NCBI GenBank assembly: GCA_020635205.1
Contig: JACKAE010000001.1
Location: 22,059 to 86,058, forward strand
Length of the DNA: 64,000 nt
Reading direction: 5' to 3'
Source: Ignavibacteria bacterium
GTDB taxonomy: Bacteria > Bacteroidota > Ignavibacteria > OLB7
A program made the translations under genes and the position numbers. Shown here piece by piece: positions 7,087 to 28,370 of this stretch; positions within the stretch are counted from its first letter, which is position 1; each line of letters opens with the position of its first letter. The notes below the pieces were generated by a model that was not told the DNA's origin, did not search any database, and saw nothing but the letters and a program-made list of their open reading frames with translations.

Positions 7087-7479
7087 ATGCCACGCAAACT
7101 TATCATACTGACAACCCTTCTCGGTCTGCTGATCGGTACTATCGGTCTGCCGACAAATATCCACGCCTGCAACATGGCGAAGGAAGAGAAGGCCGCAAAG
7201 AGTTGTGGTATGTGCGATCCGTCGCACGAGCAGGAGAGTAGTGAAGGGAACGGTTGCTGCCACAACAGAATCGAGCTTCAGCATACTGACCAGGCCTCCT
7301 TAAGTAAGGTAAACGTGGAGATTGCTCCACCAACTCTCGGCCAACTTCTTGTGTGGACACTCTTTTTGAGTGAGCCACTTCTCAACGGAGAGAAGACCAT
7401 CTCGGCACAAGCACATCCCCCTCCTCTCGAAAAACAAAGACCGCCGATCTATCTCGTTAACTCCTCATTTCTGATCTGA
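7087..7479 (+). CDS. Small secreted Cys/His-rich protein, putative metal-binding. Leads the cus-like operon.
   Basis: Signal peptide 'MPRKLIILTTLLGLLIGTIGLPTNIHA' followed by 'CNMAKEEKAAKSCGMCDPSHEQESSEGNGCCHNRIELQH'. Lies directly upstream of the TolC-like/CusB/CusA genes. Confidence 0.45.
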   Translation: MPRKLIILTTLLGLLIGTIGLPTNIHACNMAKEEKAAKSCGMCDPSHEQESSEGNGCCHNRIELQHTDQASLSKVNVEIAPPTLGQLLVWTLFLSEPLLNGEKTISAQAHPPPLEKQRPPIYLVNSSFLI

Positions 7480-7742: not shown

Positions 7743-9044
7743 ATGGGGCGAAGAGTTCTCCTCGTATTTGTTCTGCATCTCTGCACGATACCGTGGCAGG
7801 TTGCCGCGCAGTCGATTGATTCTCTCGTGTCGATGGCGGTGAGGACCGATCCCGGTTTTCGGCAGATCGGGTATGCCGAGGAGCGAGCTGAGGCTCGTGC
7901 CCTCTCAGCCGGTGCGTGGGAAGCTCCCAAAGCCGGAGTGCAGTTCCAGATGCTCTCTCCACTCAATCCGAACCCAGTGACGAAAGGGGAGACAATGTTT
8001 ATGGTGGAACAGATGATCCCTCTCGGTGGACAGAAGCGGACAATGGCTGAAGCAGAGCGGAGCATGGCAATTCTCGCCGAACCAGAGCGGATGGCGTTGA
8101 AGCGACGATTGCGGGGGGAGATCGAAGAGGAGTATTACACAATCTGGGAACTCGACAGGGAACGAGAATTAAACAGAGAGAATCGCTCCCTTGCCGAAGT
8201 CCTTTACGAAGATGTGGAGAGCAAATATGCCGTTAACCGGGCAACTCAGTCAGAGTTATATGCTCTATCTATCGAGATCGAACAGCTTGATGCAGAGCTA
8301 AAAGTTCTGGTGCAGAAGCGAGTAGAAAGCAGCCGGAGGTTGAACGCAATTGTCGGTAGAAGTCTCGATGACTCAGTGATTATTGTCGATGAACCGAGTG
8401 CCCCACTACTTCCACCATTCAGTCAACTTGTGGACAGTCTCGCGGGCCACCCCGACCTGCTCCGAATGGAACGAATGGCGCAGGTACAGAGGAAGATGGC
8501 CGATGCTGCCCGAAGCGATCTGAAGCCGATGCTCATGCTGCGCGGAGGAATTTCTTGGATGCCGGAAGGGCATCCAGTGAGAACACGGGCGTTGGGGGAA
8601 ATGGTAAACGAGTTCCACAGTTCCGGCACTACGCATGGTGAACAGGTTGCCATTTCAGTTGGCGGGATGCTCTCCTTCCCTCTCTTCTCTTGGTCGCGTT
8701 CAGGTCCGGAAGGGAAGGCTGAAGATGCAGAGTTGGCGGCAGAACAGTCGCTTGCCGAGCGAGAGAGGATGTTGCGAGAAATGACCGCGATGTTGAGCAA
8801 GCCGTACGGGATGATTGAGCGAGGACAAACGATGATTGACTTCTATAAAGATCGGCAGATACCCCTTCTGGAACAGCAGCTTGAAGGGTTGCGTGCCGAC
8901 TATATCGGTAACCGCGTCGGCTTCGATCAATTACTGCAGGTCTACAAAATGCTTGTGATGAGCAGAGAGGATATCCTGATGAGAGAGGGGGAAATGGCAC
9001 GAGCTTGGGGAGAAATTCGAGCACTTACGGGGAATTCAAAGTGA
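7743..9044 (+). CDS. TolC-family outer-membrane efflux protein (CusC/CzcC-like outer-membrane factor).
   Basis: 433 aa with a signal peptide, a coiled-coil-rich sequence and paired-repeat architecture typical of outer-membrane factor proteins. Immediately precedes the adaptor and RND pump. Confidence 0.7.
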   Translation: MGRRVLLVFVLHLCTIPWQVAAQSIDSLVSMAVRTDPGFRQIGYAEERAEARALSAGAWEAPKAGVQFQMLSPLNPNPVTKGETMFMVEQMIPLGGQKRTMAEAERSMAILAEPERMALKRRLRGEIEEEYYTIWELDRERELNRENRSLAEVLYEDVESKYAVNRATQSELYALSIEIEQLDAELKVLVQKRVESSRRLNAIVGRSLDDSVIIVDEPSAPLLPPFSQLVDSLAGHPDLLRMERMAQVQRKMADAARSDLKPMLMLRGGISWMPEGHPVRTRALGEMVNEFHSSGTTHGEQVAISVGGMLSFPLFSWSRSGPEGKAEDAELAAEQSLAERERMLREMTAMLSKPYGMIERGQTMIDFYKDRQIPLLEQQLEGLRADYIGNRVGFDQLLQVYKMLVMSREDILMREGEMARAWGEIRALTGNSK

Positions 9045-9064
9045 ACAATTCAAAATTCAAAAAT

Positions 9065-10357
9065 ATGAGTGAGCGTGGGGGGCGCGTTGCCTTGATTGTG
9101 GTGGCGGGGATGCTGCTCGTAGTTGGGGGTATAGCTGCCGGATATTTTTTGCTCCCCAACTTTGTTGGAATGGCAGGGCACAACCACGCAGATGAGATGA
9201 TCTACTTCTGCCCAATGCACCCACAGGTGCGGCAGAACGAGCCAGGTATCTGCCCGATCTGCCACATGGACCTTGTGCCGGAGAACAACCCTGACGGAAT
9301 GAGTGAGCAGATGGAAGAGGGAGAAAACCTCGTTCACATCACTCCTCGACAACGTCTGATTGCCGATGTCGCTACGGTAGAAATAGAGTCCCGCCAGCTT
9401 CAGTTAGATATAACTGCACCAGCTACAGTGGGGGTAAATGAGGAGACTCAAAAGGTGGTGACCGCTTGGTTCCCCGGAAGGATCGAGGAACTCTACGTTC
9501 AGAAGACCGGGGACTACGTTCGGAAGGGGAGTCCGCTGGCGTTGATCTACAGTCCTGAACTTGTCACGGCGCAGAAGGAATACCTGTTGGCTCTCGACGC
9601 GCAGGAGCGGCAACTTCTTCCAACTATCGAGCGGAGAGGGGAACGCTCTGCTCCGAATGAGGGGGAGAATAGGTTGGTGGCAGCATCAGAGGAGCGGCTG
9701 AAACTTCTTGGCATGACCGACGGACAGATTCAGGCGTTGCGTGAGAGAGGAGAGATTACTCGAACCACCACGATCTTCTCCACAGCCTCCGGCATCGTCA
9801 CCCGCCGGAGTGTGGTGGAGGGAGCCTACGTAAACGAGGGAACCACACTCATCGAAGTTGTCGACCTCTCTTCGGTCTGGGTGATTGCCAACATCTCCGA
9901 AAGTCAGGTAAGTCTTATCCGACCCGGGATGAACATGTCAGTCACGGGACTCTCATTAAACGGGAAGGTGATGAATGGTCGTGTTGAGTATATCTACCCG
10001 ATGGTAGACCCCGAGTCGCGCACTATCCAGGTGCGAGCTGTTTTCGCGAATCCTCAGCTTCAACTAAAGCCGGGAACGTATCTAACCGCTTCGCTTGTTC
10101 ACTCTGCCACCGATGCCTTAGCTGTGCCGGTTGGTGCGGTAATTCGTACTGGAGAGCGGGACCTTATTTACGTTGAATCGGGAGAACACACGTTTGAAGC
10201 TCGCGAAGTCACCCTCGGGATGAAGGCGAATGGATACTATCAGATCGTTGCCGGAGATATTAACCGTGGTGACAGGGTAGTTGCCGAGGGGGGATATTTG
10301 CTTGACTCAGAGCGAGAGTTGAGTGGTGGAGCATCAGGTGGAGAGCACCAACACTGA
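9065..10357 (+). CDS. cusB: Efflux RND periplasmic adaptor (CusB-like) with an N-terminal heavy-metal-binding domain.
   Basis: N-terminal TM/signal 'RVALIVVAGMLLVVGG'. Metal-binding motif 'YFCPMHPQVRQNEPGICPICHMDL' (CxxH...CPICxM). HlyD/membrane-fusion-protein-like body. Confidence 0.75.
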   Translation: MSERGGRVALIVVAGMLLVVGGIAAGYFLLPNFVGMAGHNHADEMIYFCPMHPQVRQNEPGICPICHMDLVPENNPDGMSEQMEEGENLVHITPRQRLIADVATVEIESRQLQLDITAPATVGVNEETQKVVTAWFPGRIEELYVQKTGDYVRKGSPLALIYSPELVTAQKEYLLALDAQERQLLPTIERRGERSAPNEGENRLVAASEERLKLLGMTDGQIQALRERGEITRTTTIFSTASGIVTRRSVVEGAYVNEGTTLIEVVDLSSVWVIANISESQVSLIRPGMNMSVTGLSLNGKVMNGRVEYIYPMVDPESRTIQVRAVFANPQLQLKPGTYLTASLVHSATDALAVPVGAVIRTGERDLIYVESGEHTFEAREVTLGMKANGYYQIVAGDINRGDRVVAEGGYLLDSERELSGGASGGEHQH

Positions 10358-10535: not shown

Positions 10536-13500
10536 ATGATCGAACGCATTATAGATTGGTCTGCACACAACCGACTCCTCGTCGGCTTACTCTTCCTGCT
10601 CCTTGCCGGGGCTGGAGTTTGGGCTGTGGTCACAACGCCGGTTGACGCTATTCCTGATCTCTCCGATAATCAAGTGATCGTTTTTACCGAGTGGATGGGG
10701 CGCTCGCCGCAGATCGTAGAGGATCAGGTGACCTATCCCCTGACAACTGCCTTGCAAGGGTTGCCAGAGGTGAAAGGGGTGCGCGCGCAGACAATGTTCG
10801 GCATGAGCTTCATCTTCGTCATCTTTGAAGATGGGGTCGACCTTTACTTTGCCCGACAACAAGTAGCCGAACGAATTACGACTGCACAAACCGATCTCCC
10901 CTCCGGGGTTATCCCAACAATGGGACCAGACGGAACAGGAGTGGGGCATATCTATTGGTACACTGTTGAAGGGGAAGGGTACGATCTGGCCACGCTCCGA
11001 TCACTACAAGATTGGTTCATTCGCTACAAGCTCTCCTCAGTTGACGGTGTTGCCGAAGTTGCTTCGATAGGTGGCTTCGTAAAGCAATATCAAGTAGATG
11101 TCGATCCTGAGAGGCTCCGCTCGTATGGCCTCACATTCTCCGATGTAGTTCGAGCCATTCGCTCGGCAAACAATGAGGTGGGAGGAAAGCTAATAGAGAA
11201 TAACGACGCCGAGTTCTTCGTGCGGGGGCAAGGATATTTCGAGAGTCGCGAAGATATTGAGGGGACGTTGGTTAACGCAAAGTCGGGAGGATTGCCAATT
11301 ACCATTGGTATGGTTGCCGACGTTCAACTTGGTGGAGATATTCGGCGCGGTTCGTTGGAGAAAGATGGGAAGGGGGAAGTTGTTGGGGGTATCGTCGTGA
11401 TGCGGCAGAACGAGAATGCTCGGGAAGTAATCGAGCGGGTGAAGGAGAAGATCGCTGAGATTGAAATAGGACTTCCGAAAGGGGTACGGATCGTCCCAAG
11501 CTACGACCGTTCTCCCCTGATCGACAAAGCAATTGCTACGCTTCGGAATGCGCTCGTCGAGGAGGCGTTAATCGTTACGTTGATTGTTCTCCTCTTCATC
11601 TTCCACGTCCGAAGTGCTCTCCGCATCTTAATTGAGATTCCAATTTCCGTTCTCCTCGCCTTCTTGCTGATGCGAGCGTTCGATATTACCTCCAACATCA
11701 TGTCGCTCGGTGGCATTGCCTTAGCAATCGGCGTCGTTGTCGACTCATCTATCGTCCTCGTGGAGAACGCTTACCGGAACATTGCCGAGGCGCAGGAGAG
11801 AAAGCGGAGAGAGCGAGAAGAGGGGGCTTCCGATTCCCCCGATGCGGAGTCCTCAGAAGAAATCAGCTTGACAAAAGAGGACTACTTCAACCTCGCGGTT
11901 CTCTCTGCAAAACAAGTTGGGCGAGCAATCTTCTTCAGCGAAGCAATCATGGTCATCTCCTTCCTTCCGGTCTTCCTTCTCGAAGGTCAAGAAGGAAAAC
12001 TGTTCCACCCCTTAGCTTGGACAAAAACGTTTGTGATCGGCTCCTCTGCAATCGTTGCCATCACTCTCGTGCCGATGCTGATGACTCTGTTGATGAAAGG
12101 GAAGTTCAGAACAGAGAGAGAAAACCCGGTGATGCGCTTCTTTCACGCTCTCTACAGACCAATACTGAACTGGGTGCTGAAGTGGCGGAAGACGACTATC
12201 GCGATCAACCTGCTCGCCCTTCTGGTTACGATTCCCCTCCTCACCTCGCGTGGAACAGAATTTATGCCGCCCCTCGACGAAGGCTCACTCCTCTTCATGC
12301 CGGTTCTCCTCCCGAATGCCTCGGTAGGGGAGGTTACCCGTGTGATGGGAGCACAGGATAAAATCATTGCCGACTATCCCGAAGTTGAACATGTTCTCGG
12401 GAAGGTTGGGCGAGCCGAGACTGCCACCGACAACGCTCCGGTGGCAATGATCGAAACGATTATTCTGTTGAAACCGGAGAGCGAGTGGCGTCCGGGAATT
12501 ACGAAGGGGAAAATCATTGCAGATCTCGACGCACAGCTTCAGATACCGGGCGTTCGGAATGGTTGGACACAGCCGATTATCAACCGAATTAACATGCTGG
12601 CCACAGGAGTCCGTACAGATATTGGGCTGAAAATTTTCGGCCCCGATTTGGACACACTCGAACATTACGGAATCATGGCCGAAGAGATTTTGAAGAAGGT
12701 TCCGGGAGCAGCAGACGTTGTCGCCGATCGTGTGCAGGGAGGCGTTTTTCTCGACATCGATCTTAACGAAGAGAGTGCCGCTCGTTACGGCGTTTCCGTA
12801 CAGGATGTGCAGACCCTTATTGAGACGGCAATAGGAGGAGAAAACATTGGGGTGGTTCTCGACGGACGTGCTCGCTATCCCATTCGTGCTCGGTATCAGC
12901 GGGAGTTGCGCGACAATCTGGAGAGCATTAAAAAGATTCTCGTTCCTGTGAGTGGAACTGTTGGTAGCAGTGCGATCACGAGTAGTGGCATGGGAGAAAT
13001 GAGTTCGGGAATGGGGAGTGGGGAAAAGAGGGTGAGCAGTGCGAGGGGAGAAATGACGACAATGGGAAGTTCGAACGCGTTAAGGAGAAAGGAAGTCTCC
13101 TCTACACCCGGAGTCTCACTCTCTGGCCTTACGTCTCGTTATGATCTTTCCGGTTCTACCGGGGGTAATTTACGGGGCTACGTGGAGCTTGGTGAGATTG
13201 CTAAAATCGATCTGCGTCCCGGACCTTCGATGATACCTTCTGAAAATGGAGAGCTGAAATCTACAGTCTTTCTAAACGTCCGGGGTCGCGATATGGGGAG
13301 CTTTGTCGCCGAAGCGAAGGAACGATTGCAGGGCGAGTTGGTCTTGCCTCGTGGCTACACCTACAGTTGGAGTGGACAGTACGAAAATCAAACGCGTGCC
13401 GAAAATCGCCTGTTGTTAGTAATTCCAGTTGTCTTCTTGGTCATCTTCCTCACTCTCTACCTAACGTTGAAAGATTGGAAGGAGGCTTCTGTGGTGATGC

Positions 13501-13976
13501 TTTCAGTCCCATTCGCTCTTATCGGCGGTGTTTGGTTGATTTCTCTCCTCGGCTACAATCTCTCAATAGCCGTCTGGGTTGGGTTCATCGCTCTCTACGG
13601 AGTTGCAGTGCAGACCGGTGTTGTGATGGTGGTCTACCTTCACCACGCACTCGATAAACGGCTTGCCGAACGCGGTGAAGGTTCATCGATTACGCTGCAC
13701 GACATCCACGAGGCAACGGTTGAGGGGGCGCTCGGTCGTCTCCGGCCAAAATTGATGACCGTTGCCACGTCGATGATTGGACTTGTGCCGATTATGTTCG
13801 CCACCGGTGTGGGGAGCGATGTGATGAAGCCGCTCGTTGCTCCGATGATTGGCGGACTCCTCACTTCTGCAGTTCACGTCCTAATCATGACACCTATTCT
13901 CTTCATCATTATGAAAGAACGGGCACTGAAGAGAGGGAGCTTGAGGAAGAGTGAGATGGCGGAGTGGATGGCGTAG
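10536..13976 (+). CDS. cusA: Heavy-metal efflux RND transporter, CusA/CzcA family, 1146 aa. Carries a low-complexity insertion.
   Basis: Canonical HME-RND start 'MIERIIDWSAHNRLLVGLLFLLLAG'. Twelve-TM architecture with conserved CusA-like blocks throughout. About 100 aa longer than typical because of a Ser/Gly/Met-rich segment ('SSGMGEMSSGMGSGEK...GEMTTMGSS'). Confidence 0.85.
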   Translation: MIERIIDWSAHNRLLVGLLFLLLAGAGVWAVVTTPVDAIPDLSDNQVIVFTEWMGRSPQIVEDQVTYPLTTALQGLPEVKGVRAQTMFGMSFIFVIFEDGVDLYFARQQVAERITTAQTDLPSGVIPTMGPDGTGVGHIYWYTVEGEGYDLATLRSLQDWFIRYKLSSVDGVAEVASIGGFVKQYQVDVDPERLRSYGLTFSDVVRAIRSANNEVGGKLIENNDAEFFVRGQGYFESREDIEGTLVNAKSGGLPITIGMVADVQLGGDIRRGSLEKDGKGEVVGGIVVMRQNENAREVIERVKEKIAEIEIGLPKGVRIVPSYDRSPLIDKAIATLRNALVEEALIVTLIVLLFIFHVRSALRILIEIPISVLLAFLLMRAFDITSNIMSLGGIALAIGVVVDSSIVLVENAYRNIAEAQERKRREREEGASDSPDAESSEEISLTKEDYFNLAVLSAKQVGRAIFFSEAIMVISFLPVFLLEGQEGKLFHPLAWTKTFVIGSSAIVAITLVPMLMTLLMKGKFRTERENPVMRFFHALYRPILNWVLKWRKTTIAINLLALLVTIPLLTSRGTEFMPPLDEGSLLFMPVLLPNASVGEVTRVMGAQDKIIADYPEVEHVLGKVGRAETATDNAPVAMIETIILLKPESEWRPGITKGKIIADLDAQLQIPGVRNGWTQPIINRINMLATGVRTDIGLKIFGPDLDTLEHYGIMAEEILKKVPGAADVVADRVQGGVFLDIDLNEESAARYGVSVQDVQTLIETAIGGENIGVVLDGRARYPIRARYQRELRDNLESIKKILVPVSGTVGSSAITSSGMGEMSSGMGSGEKRVSSARGEMTTMGSSNALRRKEVSSTPGVSLSGLTSRYDLSGSTGGNLRGYVELGEIAKIDLRPGPSMIPSENGELKSTVFLNVRGRDMGSFVAEAKERLQGELVLPRGYTYSWSGQYENQTRAENRLLLVIPVVFLVIFLTLYLTLKDWKEASVVMLSVPFALIGGVWLISLLGYNLSIAVWVGFIALYGVAVQTGVVMVVYLHHALDKRLAERGEGSSITLHDIHEATVEGALGRLRPKLMTVATSMIGLVPIMFATGVGSDVMKPLVAPMIGGLLTSAVHVLIMTPILFIIMKERALKRGSLRKSEMAEWMA

Positions 13977-14396
13977 GGGAATTCAAAATTCAAAAGTAAA
14001 AATTCAAAAAAGTAGGTTGCATAGATTTCTTATAGAACCTTCAGGTCGGATGTGATAGGAACTTTCGTTAACCCCCGGACTTTTAGTCCGGGGGGATCGG
14101 TATCCTCGGTTCTGACTCCCCTCTCCCACTCTGGGAATAGGGTAGGGGGAATTCAAAATTCAAAAGTAAAAATTCAAAAAAGTAGGTTGCATAGATTTCT
14201 TATAGAACCTTTAGGTCGGATGTGATAGGCACTTTCGTTAACCCCCGACTTTTGGTCGGGGGGGATCGGTATCCTCGGTTCTGACTCCCCTCTCCCACTC
14301 TGGGAATAGGGTAGGGGGAATTCAAAATTCAAAAGTAAAAATTCAAAAAAGTGGGTTGCACAGATTTCTTAATCAATTAAATCTTGAGAGATACTA
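13976..14396. repeat. Tandem direct repeat, about 2.3 copies of a ~170-180 bp unit. Each unit has an A-rich 'GAATTCAAAATTCAAAAGTAAAAATTCAAAA' block plus a G/C hairpin 'CCCCCGGACTTTTAGTCCGGGGG'.
   Basis: Near-identical units start at ~13976, ~14146 and ~14324 (third copy partial). Only a few substitutions or indels separate the copies. Confidence 0.85.
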
Positions 14397-14774
14397 ATGA
14401 ACAAATCGGTTATGTTGAAAGCACTGCTCGTAACGATGCTCTGCGGTGGATTCGTGTCGAGTTCGCTGGTTGCTGGCACGGAGGTAGCTCAGAAGAAGAG
14501 AGAGCGGACGATTACGATTTCCGTTCCAGAAATGCAGTGCGGAATGTGTGAAGCACGTATCGAGAAAGGATTGAAGAAGATCGACGGCGTCAAGTCAGTG
14601 AAAGCTGATGCTGAGGAGAATACTGTGGTTGTCACATACGACACCAAGAAGACATCGAAGAGCAAAATTGAAGAAGCCATTGCCAACCTCGGCTACGATG
14701 CAGGTGAGAAAGAGGCGAACGAGAGCGCGCAGTCGCAGCTCTCACCCTGTTGCAAGCCGGGGGGGCACGAATAG
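14397..14774 (+). CDS. Secreted heavy-metal-associated (HMA) domain protein, periplasmic copper chaperone-like.
   Basis: Signal peptide 'MLKALLVTMLCGGFVSSSLVAG'. HMA motif 'MQCGMCEARI'. C-terminal 'CC' pair. Confidence 0.7.
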   Translation: MNKSVMLKALLVTMLCGGFVSSSLVAGTEVAQKKRERTITISVPEMQCGMCEARIEKGLKKIDGVKSVKADAEENTVVVTYDTKKTSKSKIEEAIANLGYDAGEKEANESAQSQLSPCCKPGGHE

Positions 14775-14907
14775 AAAAAGTGAATAGAAAAAAGAGATCC
14801 TCTGCGCCTCTGCAGTCATTCTCTCCCTAATCGAGAGGATGAGGACAGATCAAAGGGTGGAGAGAACAATCGTATAACCAACCAATATTCTGTCGTAAGT
14901 AAATAAA

Positions 14908-15108
14908 ATGAAAGAGACAATTAAGATCGAAGGAATGAGCTGTGGCGGATGTGTCGCAAGCGTTACGAACGCCCTAAAACGGGCTGGCGTAGAAAACTTA
15001 GAAGTAGAGATCGGCAGTGCAACTGTTGAATACGAGGAGGGGAGAATGACACACCAACAGATCATCGATGCAATTGAAGATGCTGGTTTTGATGTGGTAG
15101 CAGGATGA
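14908..15108 (+). CDS. copZ: CopZ-like heavy-metal-associated copper chaperone, 66 aa.
   Basis: 'MKETIKIEGMSCGGCVASVTNAL' is the classic GMxCxxC HMA fold. Typical CopZ size. Confidence 0.8.
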   Translation: MKETIKIEGMSCGGCVASVTNALKRAGVENLEVEIGSATVEYEEGRMTHQQIIDAIEDAGFDVVAG

Positions 15109-16220
15109 GGAGCCTCTCTACGACATACCACTCAATCCAGTTGTGCAAGGTGAAGTCAACAACGTTTGGGGTACTATTCCTCTGCGGGGTACTCTTTGGG
15201 TATACACCGGGATTGGGACAGATGAACCTCGACGTAAAGATCGAACGTCCATCTCGGATTTTGCCGAAGGGGGGATACACCACCTACATCATCGTTGCGG
15301 AGAACAGATCGGCGGAGCCAATCGACCTGCAGGTGATTAGAACTGTAAACGACTATCCAGATGACACCTGGCTCATCTCCGTCTGCTCTCCCGACCTCTG
15401 CTACGAAGCGGAAGTCGATACGCTCGATCCCTATGTAATTGAACCGGGGGAGACCGGCGGAGCGCAGGTACATATCTTAGCCGGCGACACCGGGAGTGCT
15501 CGGGTCGTTCTCTCATTCGATTCTCAGAATGGAACCGAGCCAACGTTGATCGAGCTTCGGGCAGAGATCGGTGAAATTCCGGAACCCTCCCTTTTCGTTC
15601 GCATAGATAGCACAACCTCCAATGCGGTTGGGGGGGATACCGTGGAGTTTGGGATATTTCTTCTGAACACATCGGGGGATTCATTGCACCCACGTGTAGT
15701 TCGGCTCGAGAGAGATTACCCGAACGAAACCTGGGGCGACTTCCTCTGCTACTTCGATCAGTGCAGTCTGCCCGATCAAAAAGAACTTGGTGCAGACTTA
15801 AAGAAGGGGGAGGGGGTACTCTTCGCAGTAAAGGTAATTGCTGGTGTGGAGGTTGGGGAGAGTGGAGAAGTTGAAGTGATGGTGGATCCCGGTGATGGAA
15901 CCGAGCCAACATTTCACCGCTTTGCTGTGACGGTAGACCGGGTTCTCTCAGTTCAAGAAGTAGAGGCTGAAAAGGCACTCCGAATATACCCGAACCCAAC
16001 ATTCGGAGAGCTGCAGATTGAGTGTAGGCGAACGCATGATGCCACTCCTCTGCAGATCGATTTCTTCGATTTGATGGGTCGGAATCTTAGCAATCAGGTT
16101 GAGTTCAACTATAAGTCTGATCGAGTTCTCCTCAACCTTACCCAACTTCCCTCCGGCACTTATCACTGTACCGTACGTGGGAGGGGGATAGATGTGAAGA
16201 GAACGATTATTAAGTACTAA
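15105..16220 (+). CDS. T9SS C-terminal-domain cargo protein of unknown function, embedded in the copper operon.
   Basis: Start ATG overlaps the copZ stop (ATGA). Two internal repeats each contain 'DYP(D/N)(D/E)TW...C..C'. C-terminal T9SS sorting domain 'LRIYPNPTFGELQIE...FFDLMGRNL...LPSGTYHCTVRG'. Confidence 0.6.
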   Translation: MRSLSTTYHSIQLCKVKSTTFGVLFLCGVLFGYTPGLGQMNLDVKIERPSRILPKGGYTTYIIVAENRSAEPIDLQVIRTVNDYPDDTWLISVCSPDLCYEAEVDTLDPYVIEPGETGGAQVHILAGDTGSARVVLSFDSQNGTEPTLIELRAEIGEIPEPSLFVRIDSTTSNAVGGDTVEFGIFLLNTSGDSLHPRVVRLERDYPNETWGDFLCYFDQCSLPDQKELGADLKKGEGVLFAVKVIAGVEVGESGEVEVMVDPGDGTEPTFHRFAVTVDRVLSVQEVEAEKALRIYPNPTFGELQIECRRTHDATPLQIDFFDLMGRNLSNQVEFNYKSDRVLLNLTQLPSGTYHCTVRGRGIDVKRTIIKY

Positions 16221-16276
16221 AACATTCAGATAAAATCTATCTATACAACCATTCAACAATAACTGTAGGAGCTACT

Positions 16277-16726
16277 ATGAAACGAACACTCGCAATTCTC
16301 ACGATTGGTGCATCCTTGACCTTTACGGCATGTGGAGATGAAGCTGCAAAAGAGAAAGGGGATGAGATGACAGAGACAACTGAGCAGACGACAACTGAAA
16401 ATGAGACGGCAGTTGCCACGCAGCCCGAGGTTATAGACGGAGTGCAGGTGATTACCGTAAAAGTCGAAGATATGGGTTACACGCCGAGCAAAATTGCTTT
16501 CAAAGCGGGAATGCCTGCAAAAATCATCTTCGATCAACATGCCGAATATGAGTGCGCGAGCGATGTGATGTCCAAAGATCTCGGCATTGCTCTGACAAAA
16601 CTTCCCAAAGCAGAGAAGACGGAGGTTACTTTCACACCCGATAAAGCAGGAACCTATCAGTTTACTTGCGGTATGGATATGTTGAAGGGGACGGTGATTG
16701 TAGAAGAGGGAACAAGCCAGATGTAG
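16277..16726 (+). CDS. Cupredoxin-like copper-binding lipoprotein.
   Basis: Lipoprotein signal 'LTIGASLTFTACGDE'. Cupredoxin-type ligands 'DQHAEYECAS' and 'FTCGMDMLKGTV'. Lies within the copper island. Confidence 0.6.
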   Translation: MKRTLAILTIGASLTFTACGDEAAKEKGDEMTETTEQTTTENETAVATQPEVIDGVQVITVKVEDMGYTPSKIAFKAGMPAKIIFDQHAEYECASDVMSKDLGIALTKLPKAEKTEVTFTPDKAGTYQFTCGMDMLKGTVIVEEGTSQM

Positions 16727-16989
16727 AGAGCTTGGATTGGAAGCATTTAGGGAAGCTCTCTTCTATGAGCAGACCTTCTGAATGCAGAGGATAAAGTAAG
16801 ATTTTCTTTGTGGGATGTTTCACTGGAGACAATTGATTGTTACCTGCAACTGTTTCAAGGTGAGAGATTCCGAACAGAATGGAATGTGTACCGGCTCTCC
16901 GATGTCTGAGTGCCGGTACATATTCCTGCTTTAGCGCGTGAACGAAGAGGCGGGTAATTTGAGCACTTCTCTTGTGATGAATTCCCGAC

Positions 16990-17110
16990 TTTGAGTCGGG
17001 GGGGGATTGAGTGAAAACAGGCAGAGAAACGGCTTGAAGCCGTTTTCTTCTATGTGGATGCTCCAAAACACCCCGATGAATCGGGGTGTTAATGTGAGGT
17101 GGAGATTCCC
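16990..17110. repeat. MITE-like dispersed repeat, copy B.
   Basis: 'CCCGACTTTGAGTCGGGGGG...AAACGGCTTGAAGCCGTTT...CACCCCGATGAATCGGGGTGTTAATG'. Nearly identical to copy C about 225 bp downstream. Confidence 0.8.
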
Positions 17111-17212
17111 TCATTAATTGTTCAAGTGCACTGAGTTGGAAGCATGTCAAGAGACGACCTGAAGGTCTTTGCCGAATTTGTCGAGCGCTGTGGGTTCAGT
17201 TTCCAACTGATA

Positions 17213-17340
17213 GTAACCCTCGACTTTGAGTCGGGGGGGGGATTGAGTGAAAACAGGCAGAGAAACGGCTTGAAGCCGTTTTCTTCTATGTGGATGCTCC
17301 AAAACACCCCGATGAATCGGGGTGTTAATGTGAGGTGGAA
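17213..17340. repeat. MITE-like dispersed repeat, copy C.
   Basis: Same sequence as copy B. Overlapping ORFs on both strands translate the shared 'HINTPIHRGVLEHPHRRKRLQAVSLPVFTQSPP' peptide and are artefacts of the repeat. Confidence 0.8.
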
Positions 17341-17530
17341 GAGAATATCTGGTTGGTGTTGAGGAGTAACTAATCCCGCTGTTTTTGGTTTTCCTTTTGG
17401 TTGTGTGCGAAAGCAACCTACCTCGCCCTGTGAGCCGCACCTTGCTCAAGAAAAGTGATCCCTACCCCGAAGAAAGAAGTAATCAGTATTGAGAAAAATA
17501 AATGTACTCGATCATAACTATGGAGTCTGT

Positions 17531-19249
17531 ATGAAGTATTACTGTACAATGTTCACCTTTATCTGTTGTTGCGTGCTGACTGTTTCGGCAACAGCACAGG
17601 AATTTGATTCGTTGACTGTGAAGGCGAGGGATAACGCTGACAATGCAGGCGTTGCGGGAGCAACCGTAAAGCTGTTAGATGATAGTGGAAACCTTGTGGA
17701 CGAAGTAACCACCGACGAGAATGGGAATGCCGGTTTTAGCTTCAGTACCTCAAGTATTGGTAACAACGTGGCTTACACTACTGGTCTCGGTGAGCCATAT
17801 CCCAATCCTTTTACTTCCCACACAACTCTACCTATTTCCCTCCGGTCACCGGCGCGGCTAACTGGTGCAGTTTACGACCTTCTCGGTAGAGAGCTTGCCT
17901 CGGTTGAAGGAGACCTTGGAATCGGCTCTCACTCGTTCGATCTCGATCTCTCCGGTGTTCCTGCCGGCCTCTATCTCTTTCACTTGAGTAGCGGAGGAAA
18001 AGAGATCGGTTCAATTCGGTTGAACCACTCAGGTTCTGGAGCGAACGGTAACGTTAACCTTCACATCCTTCGCGGTGCTGGCACTCCTCCGGCGGCAGAC
18101 AAACCAGCTATTCCCGGTACGTTCAGTCTTGTTATCTCCCACCCGAACTACAAAACGGTTACTGAATCGGATATTACGATTGAAGGAAGGAGTGTGAGGT
18201 TCATCATGATGACGCGGGTTGAGCTTATTCCAGAGTTTGGAACAGATCAGAATCGGGTATTTACGGTGATTGCCGACGCGCGAAGCGGACTTGATGTGCC
18301 GCGCGACTTGGAGTTCAATCCGGTGCACCCAGAACAACTTTGGGTTGTGAACCGTGCCTTCGACGGAACGGTAACCTACTGGAATCCTGGAACTGCCGAG
18401 ATGACTTCGTTGAGAGTTCGAGACCTTTACGCTAACCACTTCATGGAAGAAGTGAGTGCAATTGCCTTCAGCGAGACGGAGCTTTTTGCGACTTCCCAAG
18501 AGTCTGTGAACACATACGATGGACAGCTTCCGGGGGGGAACAACTTTATGGGACCAGCACTCTGGACGGCAGATACAGCGATCTATAGTAAAGATGGGCT
18601 TGAGGACTGGGGAGAACTTGGCTCTCACCTCGACATGCTCCACGCAAGTCCGAACGGTATGGGCATTGCGCACGATCACGATAACGCCTACTGGTATGCT
18701 GATGGCTTCGGCGGTAACATCGTCTACTACGATTTTCAACAAGATCACGGTCCTGGTCACGACAACCATCGTGACGGTATCATTCGTCGTTACGTCGACG
18801 CACGTATCCAACGCCTTCCGAATGTGCCAAGCCACATGATTCTCGATAAGGAGAGTGGATGGCTCTACATCTGCGATCCAGGAAATCGGCGGGTTACTCG
18901 ATTGAATACCAAAACTGGCTCATACTCAGGTAGTGGTGAGACATTCTTTCCAGATTATGAGGAGGTGTTCGAATTCTCAACCTACACTGGAGCCACCTAC
19001 GAAGTCTTTGCGAACAGCAACCTTAGCCATCCATCTGGGATTGCACTCCACAACGGACGAATCTTCGTGACGGACAACGAGACTGGCGAGATCATCGCCT
19101 ACAACTTGACCGGTAAGGAGCTGAACCGCATCTCCACAAATGCTCAGAGCATTATGGGAATCGAGATCGGTCCAGATGGAAAAATCTGGTACGTCGATGC
19201 CGAGGCGAATCAAGTGGTGCGGATTGATGTGAAGGATGTAGGTGACTAA
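17531..19249 (+). CDS. Secreted protein with an N-terminal CarbopepD_reg-like domain, an internal T9SS-CTD-like module and a C-terminal NHL/beta-propeller-like region.
   Basis: Signal peptide 'MFTFICCCVLTVSATAQ'. 'VKARDNADNAGVAGATVKLLDDSGNLVDEVTTDENGNAGF'. The CTD-like block 'YPNPF...AVYDLLGRELASV...GLYLFHLSSGGKEIGSIRL' lies at aa ~100-180, not at the C-terminus. NHL-like 'GRIFVTDNETGEIIAYNL' and 'DGKIWYVDAEANQVVRID'. Confidence 0.6.
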   Translation: MKYYCTMFTFICCCVLTVSATAQEFDSLTVKARDNADNAGVAGATVKLLDDSGNLVDEVTTDENGNAGFSFSTSSIGNNVAYTTGLGEPYPNPFTSHTTLPISLRSPARLTGAVYDLLGRELASVEGDLGIGSHSFDLDLSGVPAGLYLFHLSSGGKEIGSIRLNHSGSGANGNVNLHILRGAGTPPAADKPAIPGTFSLVISHPNYKTVTESDITIEGRSVRFIMMTRVELIPEFGTDQNRVFTVIADARSGLDVPRDLEFNPVHPEQLWVVNRAFDGTVTYWNPGTAEMTSLRVRDLYANHFMEEVSAIAFSETELFATSQESVNTYDGQLPGGNNFMGPALWTADTAIYSKDGLEDWGELGSHLDMLHASPNGMGIAHDHDNAYWYADGFGGNIVYYDFQQDHGPGHDNHRDGIIRRYVDARIQRLPNVPSHMILDKESGWLYICDPGNRRVTRLNTKTGSYSGSGETFFPDYEEVFEFSTYTGATYEVFANSNLSHPSGIALHNGRIFVTDNETGEIIAYNLTGKELNRISTNAQSIMGIEIGPDGKIWYVDAEANQVVRIDVKDVGD

Positions 19250-19468: not shown

Positions 19469-22400
19469 TCATCGTTGAACGATTATCTTCTCCGTTACTC
19501 GACCGTTCAACGTCTTTAACTCTACAAGGTAGGTTCCCGGCTTCAGCGTGCTTCCATCGAACTCGACGGCGTAGCGGCCTGCTTCAAACAACTCCTTCTC
19601 GATCATCCGTTCAACTTCTCGACCCATCGCGTCGTAGACTGTCATGCTCACGTGTTCCTTCCTACTTACCGAGAATCGGAACTCCGTCTCGCCCGTCGTC
19701 GGGTTCGGTTGGGCCGAGATGCGGAGTCCGTTCCCCGCTTCGCCGTCGAGTTTGCGAACCCGTTTACCTGCCAGGCTTTCGATCCAGCCTTGAGTGCGAC
19801 CAGATGTCCACATCGCTGTGCTGTCGAGTGCGAAGTTCGAGAGAAGATTGCTCGAAGCGAGGCGGAGCCGGACGTAATATGTGCCGGAGAGAACCTCAAT
19901 CACTTTGTCGGTGATCCGATACTCTGCGGGGTTTGTCGTCACGTCAAGTCGTGTGGAGTCGAGCAGGTAGGCACGGACACCCGTAGCCGAGTCGACGAGT
20001 TCTAACAGAAAATCGATCGACTTTCCCGTTGCAGTTGCCGAGTCACCGTGGAAAAATTGCAGAGCCATCGTTCCCCCTATCGCAACGCTATCTCCGGTGC
20101 TGAACGACTCTGTTTTGAGAAGAGCCAGAAGATCAGTCAAGCTGTCTGGGACTGCCTCGGCTATCAGGTTGAGGTTGCGACTCTCTTCAGCATCACTGAA
20201 CCAGACATCGTAGAGTCGAGCGGAGAATCCAATCGGTACTGAGTCGTTCAGTCGCGCCCCCACTTCACGTCCATCGGCCAAGTATCCATCGGGTCGGGTG
20301 CGGGCGTAGTACTGGCGTGTTGTTCTGAGGGTGCTGTCGGGAGGGAGACCGTAGAGGACAGAGTATCTATTCACCAACTTCCCCTCTGATGCTGTTCCGT
20401 TTGGATTATATCCTCCGTGGTTAAAGGTCTTCCAGTATTGGTACTGCCACGTTGGTGTAGCACCCATCAACCATTCAGCCTCGACTTGGTGCATCAGACT
20501 TGTTAAATCATCCCGTTGGAAGACGATAGAGAAGAGAGGAGCCTCAGAGGAATCAGCAGGAACCATCACCTGATTTTGTGAGGAGACAACCGGAAAGGCA
20601 TAATCTGATGAATTTGCTAAGTACATCTCTCGGCTTATCCACGTTCCCATCAACGACGATTGATTATAGGCAGTGTCGAAAAAGATTGATCGGAAGAAGA
20701 CATCAGAATAATAGTCGTCGCGCACCCAAATGCCATTCTCGTAGACAGGAAAGAACCGATACCACTCCCAGGTCACCCCCTCCATCACCCGGCCAAGTCC
20801 ATCTTGGGATTGGTCAATTGAGGGGTGGATGTAGTGATTGGCCAATACTCCCTGAGGAACTCCATTATACGGATTGGTAAAGGGAAAGGGAGAAATGTAG
20901 TAGGGTGAATTCATCGTATTTATCTCGAATGAGAACTGCAGCTTTGGACCTGCCGTGGGAGGGATATAGTTCAATCGACCATAGACAATACCGATGTAGA
21001 TTCCGTACGTGTTGGTATCGGGCTGCTGCCAGACGATTGGGGCTGATTGCTGCTTCATCTGACGGTGAGTAAAAGGGGGCATCGATGGATATTGACCAAT
21101 GCCATACCCCTGAGATGGTTGATAAAATTGGCTTATCGTATCGTATGGTGTCCAGACCGGAAAGTTCAGGAAGTTGGTATCCATTAAGCGTCCTCGCGCG
21201 ACGATGCCAACAGTTGAATCGCTCCAAGCAATGTACTCCCCAATACCACTATCACCACTTGCCGAGGAGATCACCGGTGTTCCCCATTGGTAGGGGTCTA
21301 ATCCGTAGTGGTAGCCAACACTCTTGATTGGTTGGACGAACATATCTTCGATGGTGTCCCCATTCGAGTTGGTATAGGTAAAGTATTGAATATCCCGAAT
21401 CAAGACTTCACGCTGTCCGACAAAACCGGTGTCGTTCGGGTGGGCAGTCCAGACGATGGAGACACGCGGGGTTGCCTTGTTTGTGTAGGAACGAATAGTA
21501 ATCGAAGGGTGTGTATTCTGTGTGCGAGTCTGGCCACCGGTCATGTTCCCGGAGACAGGCCACTCTATCGGTTCCCAGAGAATCGCCCCCAACTCCTGCA
21601 TCGGCAGAGAGCGACGGAAGAAGACGTGGTAGTCACTCAGTGCACTATCCCAGCGAAAATAGGTCGAGAAATACCGGTCTGTTTTAGGATCGTACACAAT
21701 TTTGCGTTGATTGCTGTGCGAGAGATCACCCGGAGCCATCGATTCGTCCGGTTGGGTGTAGGTTATGCGTAGAAGTGCGGCTCGACCTGCGCCTAACGTT
21801 AAGCGTACTGTGGCTATTCCTGAGCCTACTGATGAAACAACCGTGTCGAGTCCGGCTCTCTTCCCTATCAGTGGAAGGTGGGTTGTGTCGGGAACAACTT
21901 CCACCACTCGAACAAATCGGTTATACTGGTTTGAGGTATCTGGACTTACCAATTTGAGCGTCAACTCGATTGTGCGCGTTTCGCTCAGTGTGTCGAGAAT
22001 TGCCTTCGTTGCGGAGGAGTAGCCGATGTCGGCACTGTCGTAGTTTCCTGTCTCGAATACTCTCCTGTTCACAACGCTGATCCAGTTCGTATCATTAAGT
22101 CTGTTGCGTACTCCTCCGGTTGTGTCAATCATCGTATCGTACAGTCCGATCTCTACGTATGTTCGGTTTAGTGAATCAACAACACCGGTAATGGGATGCC
22201 ACGCCTTTACACCTTTGATGATTTCATTGGAGGGTATGGTGCGGTGGAGAACCCCCTGTGTGCCCCCCGCCCCATCATACTCTGCGGCTGGTTCATCTTG
22301 CTGAAAGTGAATGCTGTAGGCATCCCGCCAGTGGAGGCGTTTGGTGTAGCTGCCAATCTGCTTGAACCAAGCTAACCGCTCTTTTAACTCCTTGTAGGTA

Positions 22401-24652
22401 TCGCGAAACCCGAAGTAGAGATCATCAATCATACCCAACGTGTCGTGACGAAATTCACCGTTCGCATCAACTGATCCAGAGGTTCGAAGCTGCAGCGGGT
22501 AGTCGATGAAGTTGTAGAGCGTATCGCGCAGCGTTAGGCCACCAAAGCCACTCTCAGCAACCTTCTCAGTAATAAGGTAGTCGTTGTCATCGAATAGGTG
22601 CCACGGGTAGACGTTGAACTTGTATAAGGCTAATCCGTAAGAACCGTAGCCGAGAACCATTGCGTTCAGAAGTGCCCGAACCTCCGCACGCTCGAAGCGG
22701 TGGTCCATAAGTGTGTCGTAGCCCCCCGCTCCACTCGCTATCTTGAAAAAACTCTGCAACCCTGCATAGCCAGTGTAGCGTCGGCCAGTGATTCTGCCAA
22801 GGTGGGCAGTCTCGTACATTGTTTTCATTCGCCACAAGTGGGTCTTCCCCTCTGTATAGTTGAACGTCTGTCCCGGAATTGCCGCCCCGAGCCTTCCGTG
22901 TTGCCAGAGAAGCTCCATCGTGTCGATACGCCCTTGCAGGAGTGCTGCGTAGCCAGATATCGACATCGAATCGAAGTCGAACAGGTGTGGAACCCCAAAT
23001 CTTCCACCGTCGTGTTGTTTTGCACTCGGGATATCGGGAATTGGAACACCCCCTGCCTTAATACCGAACTGATCCCCAAAGTTCCAGAAGCTCCGCCCGA
23101 TGTAGTTCCCCACCACCGACCGACTCGCATCCCCGTTCCACTCGATGTAGGGAACTGCCCAACCATGTTCAGAGGTCATCGTGTCGCCGGTGGCGAAGAC
23201 GTAAGCGGGGTTGTTCTGAATCACATTGTTCTTCAAACCGCGGTAGCCGTTGTAGGCTAAGGGGGGAGGCTCGTCCGTTCCGTAAACGCTGAGGAAACCA
23301 GACTTAAGTGTTGAGGTGGAGAAATCCATCGCAAGTGTGTCAATCTCTCGCCGGGCAGCATCCCTGTAGTCTACCCCCTCGGTATCATCTGTCCACAACA
23401 TGTGGGTGATAGAGTCCCGGACGCTCACCGAGTGCAAAGCCATCTTCTCTGTGCCAACGTAGATTACCTCGAGGTCGATACTCTTAGCAGTTACTCCAGT
23501 GTCAGCTGGTCCCCCCATCCCCTCACGTTGGAAGTTGATTTTTTTTGCGACTTCATGATAGATGTCCCAGTTAAAGGGTGGATTTCCTACTGGTTTCAAC
23601 TCTGCTTTCGTTACTGCAACAGATTTATAGAGAAAACGCAAGTTCGTATCGGCAGTTTGGAGCGTGTAAGGAGACGCAGAATCGCGGTACGTCTTCCCCT
23701 TGTCCACTTCATAGTAGATGTTAAGGATAAGCATCGTATCGTTGTCGGCTCCTTCGCCACCATTAAACAGATGCCCTTTGATTGTGAGATAGTGGGGAGA
23801 CCGGAACGCATTCCAGATATCCCCTTTGTATTCTCCCGGCTTTTCTGGATCCGGCCCATAATAGCTAACCCCATCGAAGAGTTCTGAAGAGTTGATCGGA
23901 TTGTCTGTCGTTACCCAGTTCGTCCCGTTGAATGTCTGATCCCACCGCTCAGTCTGACTACTCTTGTGGCGGAAGGCGATGCCGGAGGCGACGGTATCGC
24001 CAGAAGAGGATGGGAGATAAACTGCTTCGCGATAGTGATAATCTTGCTTACGGAAAAAGTCGTGTACGTAAAGAGAAAATGGATTTACTCGCAATGAATC
24101 ATACAGATAGTTGGTAAACACATTATCATACCACGGAGAGACAGTCAGCAGGTTCGTCAGATACCCCAGTCCACGCATCTCCGACGTATCGAAGGGATAG
24201 AAGACTGCCTCGCGCGCCTGCTGCGACTGGTGAATGTATGAGGGAAGCCCGTGGTGTCCATCATAACTGGTAAGGGGAACAACGTACTTCCCAGTCGGGG
24301 CTGAGTTGATGAGGGTCTGGTATCGCCCCCACCGGTCGAACTTGTAGGTCCCCTTCTCCACTGAATAGATTACGTAGTCTCCACCAATCCGGCTCACGTA
24401 ATCCCACACCTCATTCATTGCCACTTGGTTATAACTGTAGAACCAGATACCGACAGGAAAGTCGTCTGGGAACTGTCGGGGGATGTTTACCCTGTCGGCC
24501 AGTGTAGAGTCGTACCACTCACGGTATCCGGCCGGTTGCCCTGAGCTTTCGGGGGGAAAGAGGAGAGGGAAGAAAAGAATAAGGGCGGCAAGTTGCCAGC
24601 TTCGCAGCATAGACTGCCACCTTGTTCTGTTAGTGGTATTCATAGAGGGCAC
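19469..24652 (-). CDS. Very large (1727 aa) T9SS cargo protein of unknown function.
   Basis: Uninterrupted 5.2-kb ORF. N-terminal signal 'WQLAALILFFPLLFPPESSGQ'. Canonical C-terminal T9SS domain 'RISAQPNPTTGETEFRF...MTVYDAMGREV...GTYLVELKTLNGRVTEKIIVQR'. Confidence 0.7.
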   Translation of the reverse strand: MPSMNTTNRTRWQSMLRSWQLAALILFFPLLFPPESSGQPAGYREWYDSTLADRVNIPRQFPDDFPVGIWFYSYNQVAMNEVWDYVSRIGGDYVIYSVEKGTYKFDRWGRYQTLINSAPTGKYVVPLTSYDGHHGLPSYIHQSQQAREAVFYPFDTSEMRGLGYLTNLLTVSPWYDNVFTNYLYDSLRVNPFSLYVHDFFRKQDYHYREAVYLPSSSGDTVASGIAFRHKSSQTERWDQTFNGTNWVTTDNPINSSELFDGVSYYGPDPEKPGEYKGDIWNAFRSPHYLTIKGHLFNGGEGADNDTMLILNIYYEVDKGKTYRDSASPYTLQTADTNLRFLYKSVAVTKAELKPVGNPPFNWDIYHEVAKKINFQREGMGGPADTGVTAKSIDLEVIYVGTEKMALHSVSVRDSITHMLWTDDTEGVDYRDAARREIDTLAMDFSTSTLKSGFLSVYGTDEPPPLAYNGYRGLKNNVIQNNPAYVFATGDTMTSEHGWAVPYIEWNGDASRSVVGNYIGRSFWNFGDQFGIKAGGVPIPDIPSAKQHDGGRFGVPHLFDFDSMSISGYAALLQGRIDTMELLWQHGRLGAAIPGQTFNYTEGKTHLWRMKTMYETAHLGRITGRRYTGYAGLQSFFKIASGAGGYDTLMDHRFERAEVRALLNAMVLGYGSYGLALYKFNVYPWHLFDDNDYLITEKVAESGFGGLTLRDTLYNFIDYPLQLRTSGSVDANGEFRHDTLGMIDDLYFGFRDTYKELKERLAWFKQIGSYTKRLHWRDAYSIHFQQDEPAAEYDGAGGTQGVLHRTIPSNEIIKGVKAWHPITGVVDSLNRTYVEIGLYDTMIDTTGGVRNRLNDTNWISVVNRRVFETGNYDSADIGYSSATKAILDTLSETRTIELTLKLVSPDTSNQYNRFVRVVEVVPDTTHLPLIGKRAGLDTVVSSVGSGIATVRLTLGAGRAALLRITYTQPDESMAPGDLSHSNQRKIVYDPKTDRYFSTYFRWDSALSDYHVFFRRSLPMQELGAILWEPIEWPVSGNMTGGQTRTQNTHPSITIRSYTNKATPRVSIVWTAHPNDTGFVGQREVLIRDIQYFTYTNSNGDTIEDMFVQPIKSVGYHYGLDPYQWGTPVISSASGDSGIGEYIAWSDSTVGIVARGRLMDTNFLNFPVWTPYDTISQFYQPSQGYGIGQYPSMPPFTHRQMKQQSAPIVWQQPDTNTYGIYIGIVYGRLNYIPPTAGPKLQFSFEINTMNSPYYISPFPFTNPYNGVPQGVLANHYIHPSIDQSQDGLGRVMEGVTWEWYRFFPVYENGIWVRDDYYSDVFFRSIFFDTAYNQSSLMGTWISREMYLANSSDYAFPVVSSQNQVMVPADSSEAPLFSIVFQRDDLTSLMHQVEAEWLMGATPTWQYQYWKTFNHGGYNPNGTASEGKLVNRYSVLYGLPPDSTLRTTRQYYARTRPDGYLADGREVGARLNDSVPIGFSARLYDVWFSDAEESRNLNLIAEAVPDSLTDLLALLKTESFSTGDSVAIGGTMALQFFHGDSATATGKSIDFLLELVDSATGVRAYLLDSTRLDVTTNPAEYRITDKVIEVLSGTYYVRLRLASSNLLSNFALDSTAMWTSGRTQGWIESLAGKRVRKLDGEAGNGLRISAQPNPTTGETEFRFSVSRKEHVSMTVYDAMGREVERMIEKELFEAGRYAVEFDGSTLKPGTYLVELKTLNGRVTEKIIVQR

Positions 24653-24725
24653 TCCTGTTTGATGGTGAATTGAAGAGCCAGTATAGCTCCTTTACTATTA
24701 CTGCTATTACGAAAGTTTTTATGCT

Positions 24726-26411: not shown

Positions 26412-26549
26412 GGTTGTTCTTACATAATCATTTTTGGTTGCTTGTACTATGTACAATTCTAAGCTCTATCGTACAAGTGAAATTTCATGCCTATGAACTC
26501 CTCATTGAGAAGGATAGTGCCCCTCTCTGCCGAACGGTATTGATAGTTC

Positions 26550-28232: not shown

Positions 28233-28370
28233 TGTTGTTCTTACATAATCATTTTTGGTTGCTTGTACTATGTACAATTCTAAGCTCTATCGCACAAGTG
28301 AATTCTCACGCCAATAAGCTCCTCATTGAGAAGGATAGTGCCCGTTTCTGCCGAATGATATTGATAGTTC

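Follow-up and report, generated by a model that had tools for sequence, protein, structure and literature searches.

The 64,000-nucleotide (nt) stretch analyzed here, hereafter the window, is from Ignavibacteria bacterium (GenBank assembly GCA_020635205.1, contig JACKAE010000001.1, positions 22,059–86,058 of the forward strand). Its subject is a 371-residue open reading frame (ORF) at 15105–16220, which, together with its two-domain homologs, we call X; L-numbers denote related loci and P-numbers homologous proteins. X is a genuine gene. It lies among seven plus-strand genes within 7.7–16.7 kb of the window that encode a TolC-like protein, CusB, CusA, an exported HMA protein, a CopZ-like protein, X itself and a Cupredoxin_1 lipoprotein. 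The features of this copper locus, including the immunoglobulin-like (Ig-like) domains of X and its type IX secretion system (T9SS) sorting domain, are as follows:

7743–9044, plus strand: TolC-like outer-membrane efflux protein, cusC-like (Pfam OEP, E = 6e-21; TIGR01845, weak)
9005–10357, plus strand: CusB-like periplasmic adaptor with a heavy-metal-binding domain (HlyD_D23, E = 1.5e-70; HMBD, E = 3.6e-12; CusB/CzcB models)
10536–13976, plus strand: CusA/CzcA-family resistance-nodulation-division heavy-metal efflux pump (TIGR00914, 1115 bits, cutoff 701; ACR_tran)
14397–14774, plus strand: exported HMA protein, MerP/CopZ-like, 125 residues (HMA at residues 40–101, E = 1.3e-18; hydrophobic N-terminus; conserved in L001–L006)
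14908–15108, plus strand: CopZ-like cytoplasmic copper chaperone, 66 residues, with an MSCGGC motif (HMA, E = 2e-12; CopZ models at E = 1e-16, below the NCBIfam cutoffs)
15105–16220, plus strand: X, 371 residues, comprising a predicted signal peptide, two Ig domains resembling PorA's N-terminal domain and a T9SS sorting domain (ORF, homologs, conserved synteny)
15105–15218, plus strand: predicted signal peptide, X residues 1–38 (hydrophobic core FGVLFLCGVLFG; (G/A)Q conserved here in homologs)
15216–15578, plus strand: Ig-like domain 1, X residues 38–158 (AlphaFold model, predicted local distance difference test (pLDDT) 88.8; conservation counts)
15579–15956, plus strand: Ig-like domain 2, X residues 159–284 (internal repeat, E = 4e-9; model; conservation)
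15984–16211, plus strand: T9SS type A C-terminal sorting domain, X residues 294–369 of 371 (Por_Secre_tail PF18962, 37.1 bits, cutoff 27; TIGR04183, 26.1 bits, cutoff 23)
16277–16726, plus strand: Cupredoxin_1 lipoprotein, 149 residues, lipobox-like LTFTAC followed by acidic GDE (PF13473, E = 3.3e-18)
16998–17339, plus strand: two exact 106-nt repeats with terminator-like hairpins (17026–17046 and 17262–17282), 3′ of the cupredoxin gene

The gene order given in the original prediction, from secreted HMA protein through CopZ and X to the cupredoxin lipoprotein, agrees with both the ORFs and their domain matches, and cusCBA precedes it. The ATG of X (15105–15107) overlaps the TGA of copZ (15106–15108, in frame with 14908) by 4 nt (ATGA), as had been stated and as can be read directly from the sequence. 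Taking this overlap as a sign of co-translation was, however, an overstatement. It occurs in three lineages, namely the window, L004 (an 80% relative) and the lineage of P0010 (L007–L009), which lacks the C-terminal sorting domain; in the annotation of other relatives, 26–143 nt separate the two genes. The start codon is also ambiguous: an in-frame GTG at 15150 (V16), which would shorten the signal peptide, leaving it equally normal, and put 41 nt between copZ and X in place of the overlap, appears equally plausible as the start. A consensus scan of the plus strand found no terminator-like site in 14397–16726, and the first ones are those at 17026 and 17262. With no such site before 17026, with the genes on one strand and with at most 41 nt between copZ and X, the HMA gene, copZ, X and the cupredoxin gene, 3′ of cusCBA, fit a single transcript; they are very probably co-transcribed, and the operon likely ends at the 106-nt repeats.

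Cleavage of X is predicted to occur between G38 and Q39, leaving an N-terminal Gln. The two halves of X align with 29% identity over 110 residues (E = 4e-9), forming repeats of ~120 residues each that carry the blocks NDYPDDTW…C94-x4-C99 and RDYPNETW…C215-x4-C220. The two repeats described earlier, each with a DYP-x-(D/E)TW block and paired cysteines, were thus found in both halves, in the form W-x4-C-x4-C. The T9SS sorting domain said to close X scores above both curated cutoffs (Por_Secre_tail and TIGR04183) and is the sole database domain in X in Pfam and NCBIfam. That the host has T9SS machinery is suggested indirectly by several other window genes with sorting domains.

At full length, X has only 10 relatives in a database of 5.8 billion proteins, from Ignavibacteriae, Candidatus Kapaibacterium metagenome-assembled genomes and metagenome contigs. 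When the two-repeat region was made into a profile and compared with 1.8 billion cluster representatives, 106 proteins were retrieved. The domain is present in these family proteins singly or in two, three or five copies, and in most of them a T9SS sorting domain follows. A scan of the genomes of GTDB species representatives yielded only two loci, both relatives that had been found already, and a metagenome scan with an alignment of the distant subgroup added nothing but a second copy of P0016 and a single weak match.

The two-domain homologs occupy 12 distinct contexts, and in every one (12/12), down to ~25% identity, an HMA gene is close by. In most of these contexts there are, besides, genes for cupredoxin or YtkA lipoproteins, multicopper oxidases, CusF/CusA or copper ATPases, and the gene order differs from one context to another. 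In the close clade (42–80% identity), the order CusA–HMA–CopZ–X–Cupredoxin_1 is found in L001, L003, L004 and L005/6, and with insertions in L002, with a copper P-type ATPase gene next in line in L001, L003 and L004. The P0010 lineage has the order ATPase–CopZ–X–cupredoxin. The Cupredoxin_1 gene follows directly 3′ of X in L001–L005, L008 and L009 as well as in the window. The distant two-domain homologs, at 25–34% identity, lie in the following gene arrangements:

L012: CusF, His-rich YtkA-like lipoprotein, X, Glyoxal_oxid_N/GO-like (galactose-oxidase-type) protein, DUF305, HMA, multicopper oxidase
L013/L019: extracytoplasmic function (ECF) sigma factor, X, HMA-like ORF
L015: two multicopper oxidases, HMA, propeller, HMA, X, YtkA (138 residues), ATPase
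L016: HMA, YtkA-like lipoprotein, X
L017: CusA, CusF, multicopper oxidase, lipoprotein, X, DUF305, HMA, multicopper oxidase, ATPase

In L013 314–1987 and L019 116–1636, the X homolog P0016 starts 25 nt 3′ of the ECF sigma factor gene, in the usual anti-sigma slot. Throughout these loci, the usual immediate neighbor of X is an extracytoplasmic copper-binding lipoprotein: Cupredoxin_1 in the close clade, YtkA in L015 and a ~350-residue YtkA-like lipoprotein in L012, L016 and L017. The genes for the ~350-residue proteins lie directly 5′ of X (L012 1067–2077, L016 882–1946, L017 5886–7004); their products are homologous to one another (E ≤ 1e-101), match YtkA faintly and are rich in His in their N-terminal regions. 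The X domain was sought in these lipoproteins and in the other neighbors, and was not found there.

The assignment of X to a copper locus thus held when its co-occurrence with copper genes was examined. Copper contexts that persist even when rearranged argue for a functional link far more strongly than would synteny that was simply inherited. X could instead be a passenger, an unrelated T9SS cargo gene present in the operon by chance. Such cargo genes are frequent in the window, where several further genes carry sorting domains, and metal genes are missing from the surroundings of one single-domain relative. However, the copper association holds over all 12 contexts, in rearranged orders and at ~25–80% identity, and we consider this explanation, already disfavored, to be highly improbable.

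The signature of the domain was derived from 129 domains, extracted from proteins with one, two, three or five of them. By the residue numbers of domain 1 of X, it comprises N67, R79, P85, W89 (129/129), C94 and C99 (128/129 each); the corresponding residues of domain 2 are N188, R200, W210, C215 and C220. The pattern N…R…PD..W-x4-C-x4-C marks an Ig-like domain family that carries no annotation: neither Pfam nor NCBIfam has a model for the repeat domain, and only scattered weak matches to CARDB, DUF11, HYDIN and ASH-type Ig domains were obtained. No model of the ASH, PapD-like, HYDIN-VesB, CARDB or DUF11 (E-set) Ig domains covers the X family, and W-x4-C-x4-C is specific to it.

The family includes proteins of ~240 residues (P0025, P0034, P0038 and ~35 others) with a signal peptide, one W-x4-C-x4-C domain and a T9SS sorting domain. 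A single genomic context of such a protein was read (n = 1), that of P0025 in L014, and it has no metal genes nearby. Since the W/Cys block is family-wide, including that single-domain relative, it is a fold signature and most likely structural. The DYP-x-(D/E)TW block with its cysteines, as described in the original prediction, is therefore the hallmark of the whole domain family and not copper-specific.

The invariance of the two C-x4-C pairs also bears on the possibility that X is a redox-active protein, its cysteines forming a thiol–disulfide couple, for example in the repair of disulfides mis-oxidized by copper or in extracytoplasmic reduction of Cu(II). Copper stress does cause aberrant periplasmic disulfides. 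However, the Cys pair is equally invariant in members without copper context, the fold is not thioredoxin-like, and no supply of reductant is known beyond the outer membrane. We regard a redox function as very unlikely.

The structure prediction that had been suggested for the two repeats was carried out with AlphaFold2 on an alignment of 10 sequences. The model consists of two confident all-β sandwiches (mean pLDDT 88.8); the predicted template modeling score is 0.54, which leaves the relative orientation of the domains uncertain. The X repeat is an Ig-like β-sandwich. A Foldseek search of the PDB was uninformative, returning only generic tandem Ig-like matches with poor global template modeling scores, and an enzyme function for X was rejected in the absence of a match to any catalytic fold. 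A profile of the close clade retrieved nothing for the repeat domain from the PDB sequences. With a profile of 42 diverse domains, the best and sole domain-level match was 6kjk_A (E = 8.7e-4, 22 bits), with the whole domain covered, and a profile of the ~240-residue single-domain relatives also retrieved 6kjk_A (E = 0.0038).

This entry is the N-terminal domain from Porphyromonas gingivalis PorA (PGN_0123). PorA is a 246-residue T9SS cargo, in which a signal peptide is followed by an Ig-like domain and a C-terminal domain (CTD), and it acts upstream of PorXY-SigP (PMC7712824, PMC12152298). Its CTD binds PorY, while the N-domain does not and has no known ligand (PMC7712824, PMC12152298). The modeled X domains have the fold of the PorA N-domain (6KJK), and the Asn and both Cys of PorA align with the family profile. 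However, the identity is only 13%, the cysteines of PorA are spaced as C-x3-C, and the invariant Trp and Arg of the family are missing. PorA (~246 residues) also has a single Ig-like domain between its signal peptide and CTD where X has two; the single-domain ~240-residue relatives do fit, and share the PorA architecture. We consider it probable from these alignments that the X family and the PorA N-domain are remote homologs.

The link between PorA and T9SS regulation runs through the CTD (PMC12152298), and is not a link to copper. By analogy, X or its CTD might report the state of the envelope or of copper to a membrane sensor or an ECF sigma pathway. A regulatory role for a T9SS cargo has a precedent in PorA, whose CTD activates PorY-PorX-SigP in P. 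gingivalis (PMC7712824, PMC12152298), and P0016 has its position 3′ of the ECF sigma factor gene. However, PorA signals by its CTD and not by the N-domain that resembles X (PMC12152298), and four of the 22 two-domain homologs lack a CTD and keep the copper context. Furthermore, a scan of window genes around the locus revealed neither a sensor kinase nor an ECF gene, and the same holds for 11 of the 12 contexts. Signaling of this kind is distinctly unlikely.

The four homologs without the sorting domain (P0010, P0012, P0014 and P0017) end 12–37 residues past domain 2. Because these make up 4/22, and because P0010 is a complete gene that still lies between copZ and the cupredoxin gene, T9SS export is usual for X and not essential for its conserved role. 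The proposal that X links copper stress to the T9SS secretome is not supported.

Residues that distinguish the copper-linked subfamily from the rest of the family are found in domain 1. R51, T60, S92, H123 and G127 are each present in 22/22 two-domain proteins, and T59 in 21/22. Elsewhere in the family the same positions are variable (R51 to A/K/I/V, T60 to E/D, H123 to T/H/S/D), and the position in domain 2 that matches H123 is Lys or Arg. The pattern suggests that the copper-linked subfamily has a functional site of its own, made up of R51, T59, T60, S92 and H123. The mature part of nearly all members contains exactly four Cys; Met shows no conservation. A Trp-capped Cys2-His copper site of the CusF type was considered and not adopted as the main reading; relatives without a copper link have the same invariant W, C and C, and domain 2 has Lys/Arg in place of the His.

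The nearest functional counterparts that we can propose are CopC/PcoC, YtkA/CtaK, CusF and PCuAC, which, as X, are small, exported and rich in β-structure, and whose genes share copper loci with those for oxidases, pumps and ATPases; genes for YtkA and CusF adjoin homologs of X. The likeness is one of function and not of sequence: none of these proteins matches X, and their Met/His-rich motifs are not found in it. To our knowledge, T9SS export to the cell surface has not been described for any of them. The literature searched held no description of a T9SS-exported copper accessory. The view that X has no characterized copper-related counterpart was thus upheld, both there and by the lack of a Pfam or NCBIfam model over the repeat.

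The window shows several other features of note, among them two further genes:

17489–19249, plus strand: 586-residue CarboxypepD_reg / internal CTD-like / NHL-propeller protein (69–89% identical in L003, L004 and L011, in the same place in the copper locus)
28900–30582, plus strand: CueO-like multicopper oxidase (T9SS tail sub-threshold)

The ~2.1-kb copper ATPase gene of the relatives is replaced by ~780 nt of repeats (L004 5225–7532 corresponds to window 16729–17511), and the 106-nt repeats (16998–17103 and 17234–17339) lie at the site where L001, L003, L004 and L011 carry the copper P-type ATPase gene. The gene thus appears to have been deleted or replaced in the window. In the spacer that separates cusA from the HMA gene (13976–14416), a ~170-nt unit is repeated 2.6 times in tandem. 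Every copy has a hairpin rich in G+C as well as an imperfect palindrome (GGTTGCATAGATTTCTTATAGAACC), and the final, incomplete one extends into the HMA start codon; the corresponding spacer in L004 (83–89% identical) is single and 112 nt long. A hairpin resembling repetitive extragenic palindromic (REP) elements, CCCGACTTTNRGTCGGGGGG, occurs in six copies, all on the plus strand, at 2728, 14075, 14244, 16984, 17219 and 43576, with none expected by chance. At least four of the copies are intergenic, in the spacers flanking the X locus. A search of the locus with Rfam gave only sub-threshold chance matches inside the repeats.

In the 586-residue protein, the Por_Secre_tail-like domain is internal (residues 104–172) and is followed by a C-terminal NHL/SGL-type β-propeller; an internal sorting-like module of this kind is unusual. 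The protein at 28900 had been described as a multicopper oxidase with a T9SS tail. It is a CueO-like multicopper oxidase, but the tail falls below the threshold (TIGR04183, 18.5 vs. 23 bits, E = 0.0014). Because in L003 the oxidase gene lies ~0.8 kb 3′ of the NHL-propeller gene, it belongs to the same ancestral copper locus. In the window the two genes are separated by 9.6 kb of minus-strand genes (19469–28277), which encode a 1727-residue T9SS cargo and two ORFs of ~575 residues, and this block looks like an insertion into that locus. Two other minus-strand genes, encoding 717 residues (44261–46414) and ~2050 residues (46502–52654), directly follow the copper cluster in L001 (13437–17038) and lie ~27 kb further away in the window, a displacement that indicates a large insertion or rearrangement. 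Among the other genes of the locus, the exported HMA protein ends in an extra Cys-Cys/His tail, SPCCKPGGHE (14745–14774), beyond its HMA domain. A 130-residue ORF just 5′ of the TolC-like gene (7087–7479) has a signal-peptide-like N-terminus and a Cys/His-rich sequence (HACN…SCGMCDPSHE…GCCHN), and may be a metal-binding protein or the partner of a regulator.

On balance, we lean towards X being a dedicated extracytoplasmic copper-resistance accessory that acts with the adjoining copper-binding lipoprotein and the exported oxidase; the case is one of guilt by association in uncultured organisms. X would leave the cytoplasm via Sec, be cut before Gln39, and yield a product of two tandem ~120-residue Ig-like β-sandwich domains at the cell surface or in the medium. 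Proteins with the sorting domain would be at the surface, and those without it in the periplasm. There, X would work together with the neighboring lipoprotein (cupredoxin or YtkA-like) and an exported multicopper oxidase; we infer both the location and the interaction. This could be achieved in two ways. X might bind copper at the domain 1 site (R51, T59, T60, S92 and H123), possibly with C94/C99, and hand it over in the manner of CopC/PcoC, or it might dock partner proteins. That X itself binds copper in such a hand-over role, within the accessory function, is possible, although we put it forward only tentatively and by analogy.

A number of observations weigh against a copper-resistance function. 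The copper ATPase that accompanies X in relatives was not found by tblastn in the 64-kb window, and the family is known from metagenomes only. None of the known copper-binding families (CopC, YtkA, CusF, PCuAC, cupredoxin and HMA) was matched by the repeat in Pfam or NCBIfam, and the PDB profile search gave the PorA N-domain only. (A single isolated match to CusF_Ec, E = 0.045, in one of the 42 domains was counted as noise.) The Cys pairs and the Trp are family-wide, and in an exported protein the pairs are more likely to form a structural disulfide. Arg, Thr, Thr, Ser and His are not typical as a set of copper ligands. Finally, the mature part contains few His and Met (1–8 and 0–6, respectively). 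These counts rule out X as a Met/His-rich copper sponge, and any copper binding by X would consequently be at one defined site.

The low His/Met content is in keeping with a scaffold or adhesin that handles no metal. In this case, the Ig domains would dock the co-encoded proteins (oxidase, cupredoxin or YtkA lipoproteins, propellers) or bind a surface glycan, as part of a copper-induced surface layer. Ig sandwiches of the ASH/PapD/HYDIN/CARDB-like class are typical interaction modules, the N/R/W signature resembles, by our reading, carbohydrate- or protein-binding patches, and the PorA N-domain was likened by its authors to the FimH lectin domain (PMC7712824). However, the invariant single His with Arg, Thr and Ser in domain 1, kept across relatives of ~25% identity, suggests a defined small site, and no partner is common to all loci, some having a cupredoxin and others YtkA. 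We find a scaffold rather doubtful as the explanation.

The accessory role could also take a more specific form, in which X is a surface metallochaperone or copper receptor outside the outer membrane, together with a surface cupredoxin or YtkA lipoprotein and a T9SS-exported multicopper oxidase. We think this unlikely. If true, it would provide the first ligand for the fold of the PorA N-domain, and would suggest that PorA-like cargo proteins are extracellular ligand sensors.

Copper-resistance loci have been well studied in Proteobacteria and Firmicutes, and little is known of how bacteria with T9SS deal with copper at or beyond the outer membrane. What is new here is the accessory component and its domain family; the locus is otherwise a classical copper-resistance locus. 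The Ig-like domain family comprises about 100 representative clusters, and provides the first sequence relatives, found here, for the PorA N-domain. As a conserved, unannotated part of such loci that is usually exported by T9SS along with a multicopper oxidase, X would carry copper detoxification out to the cell surface.

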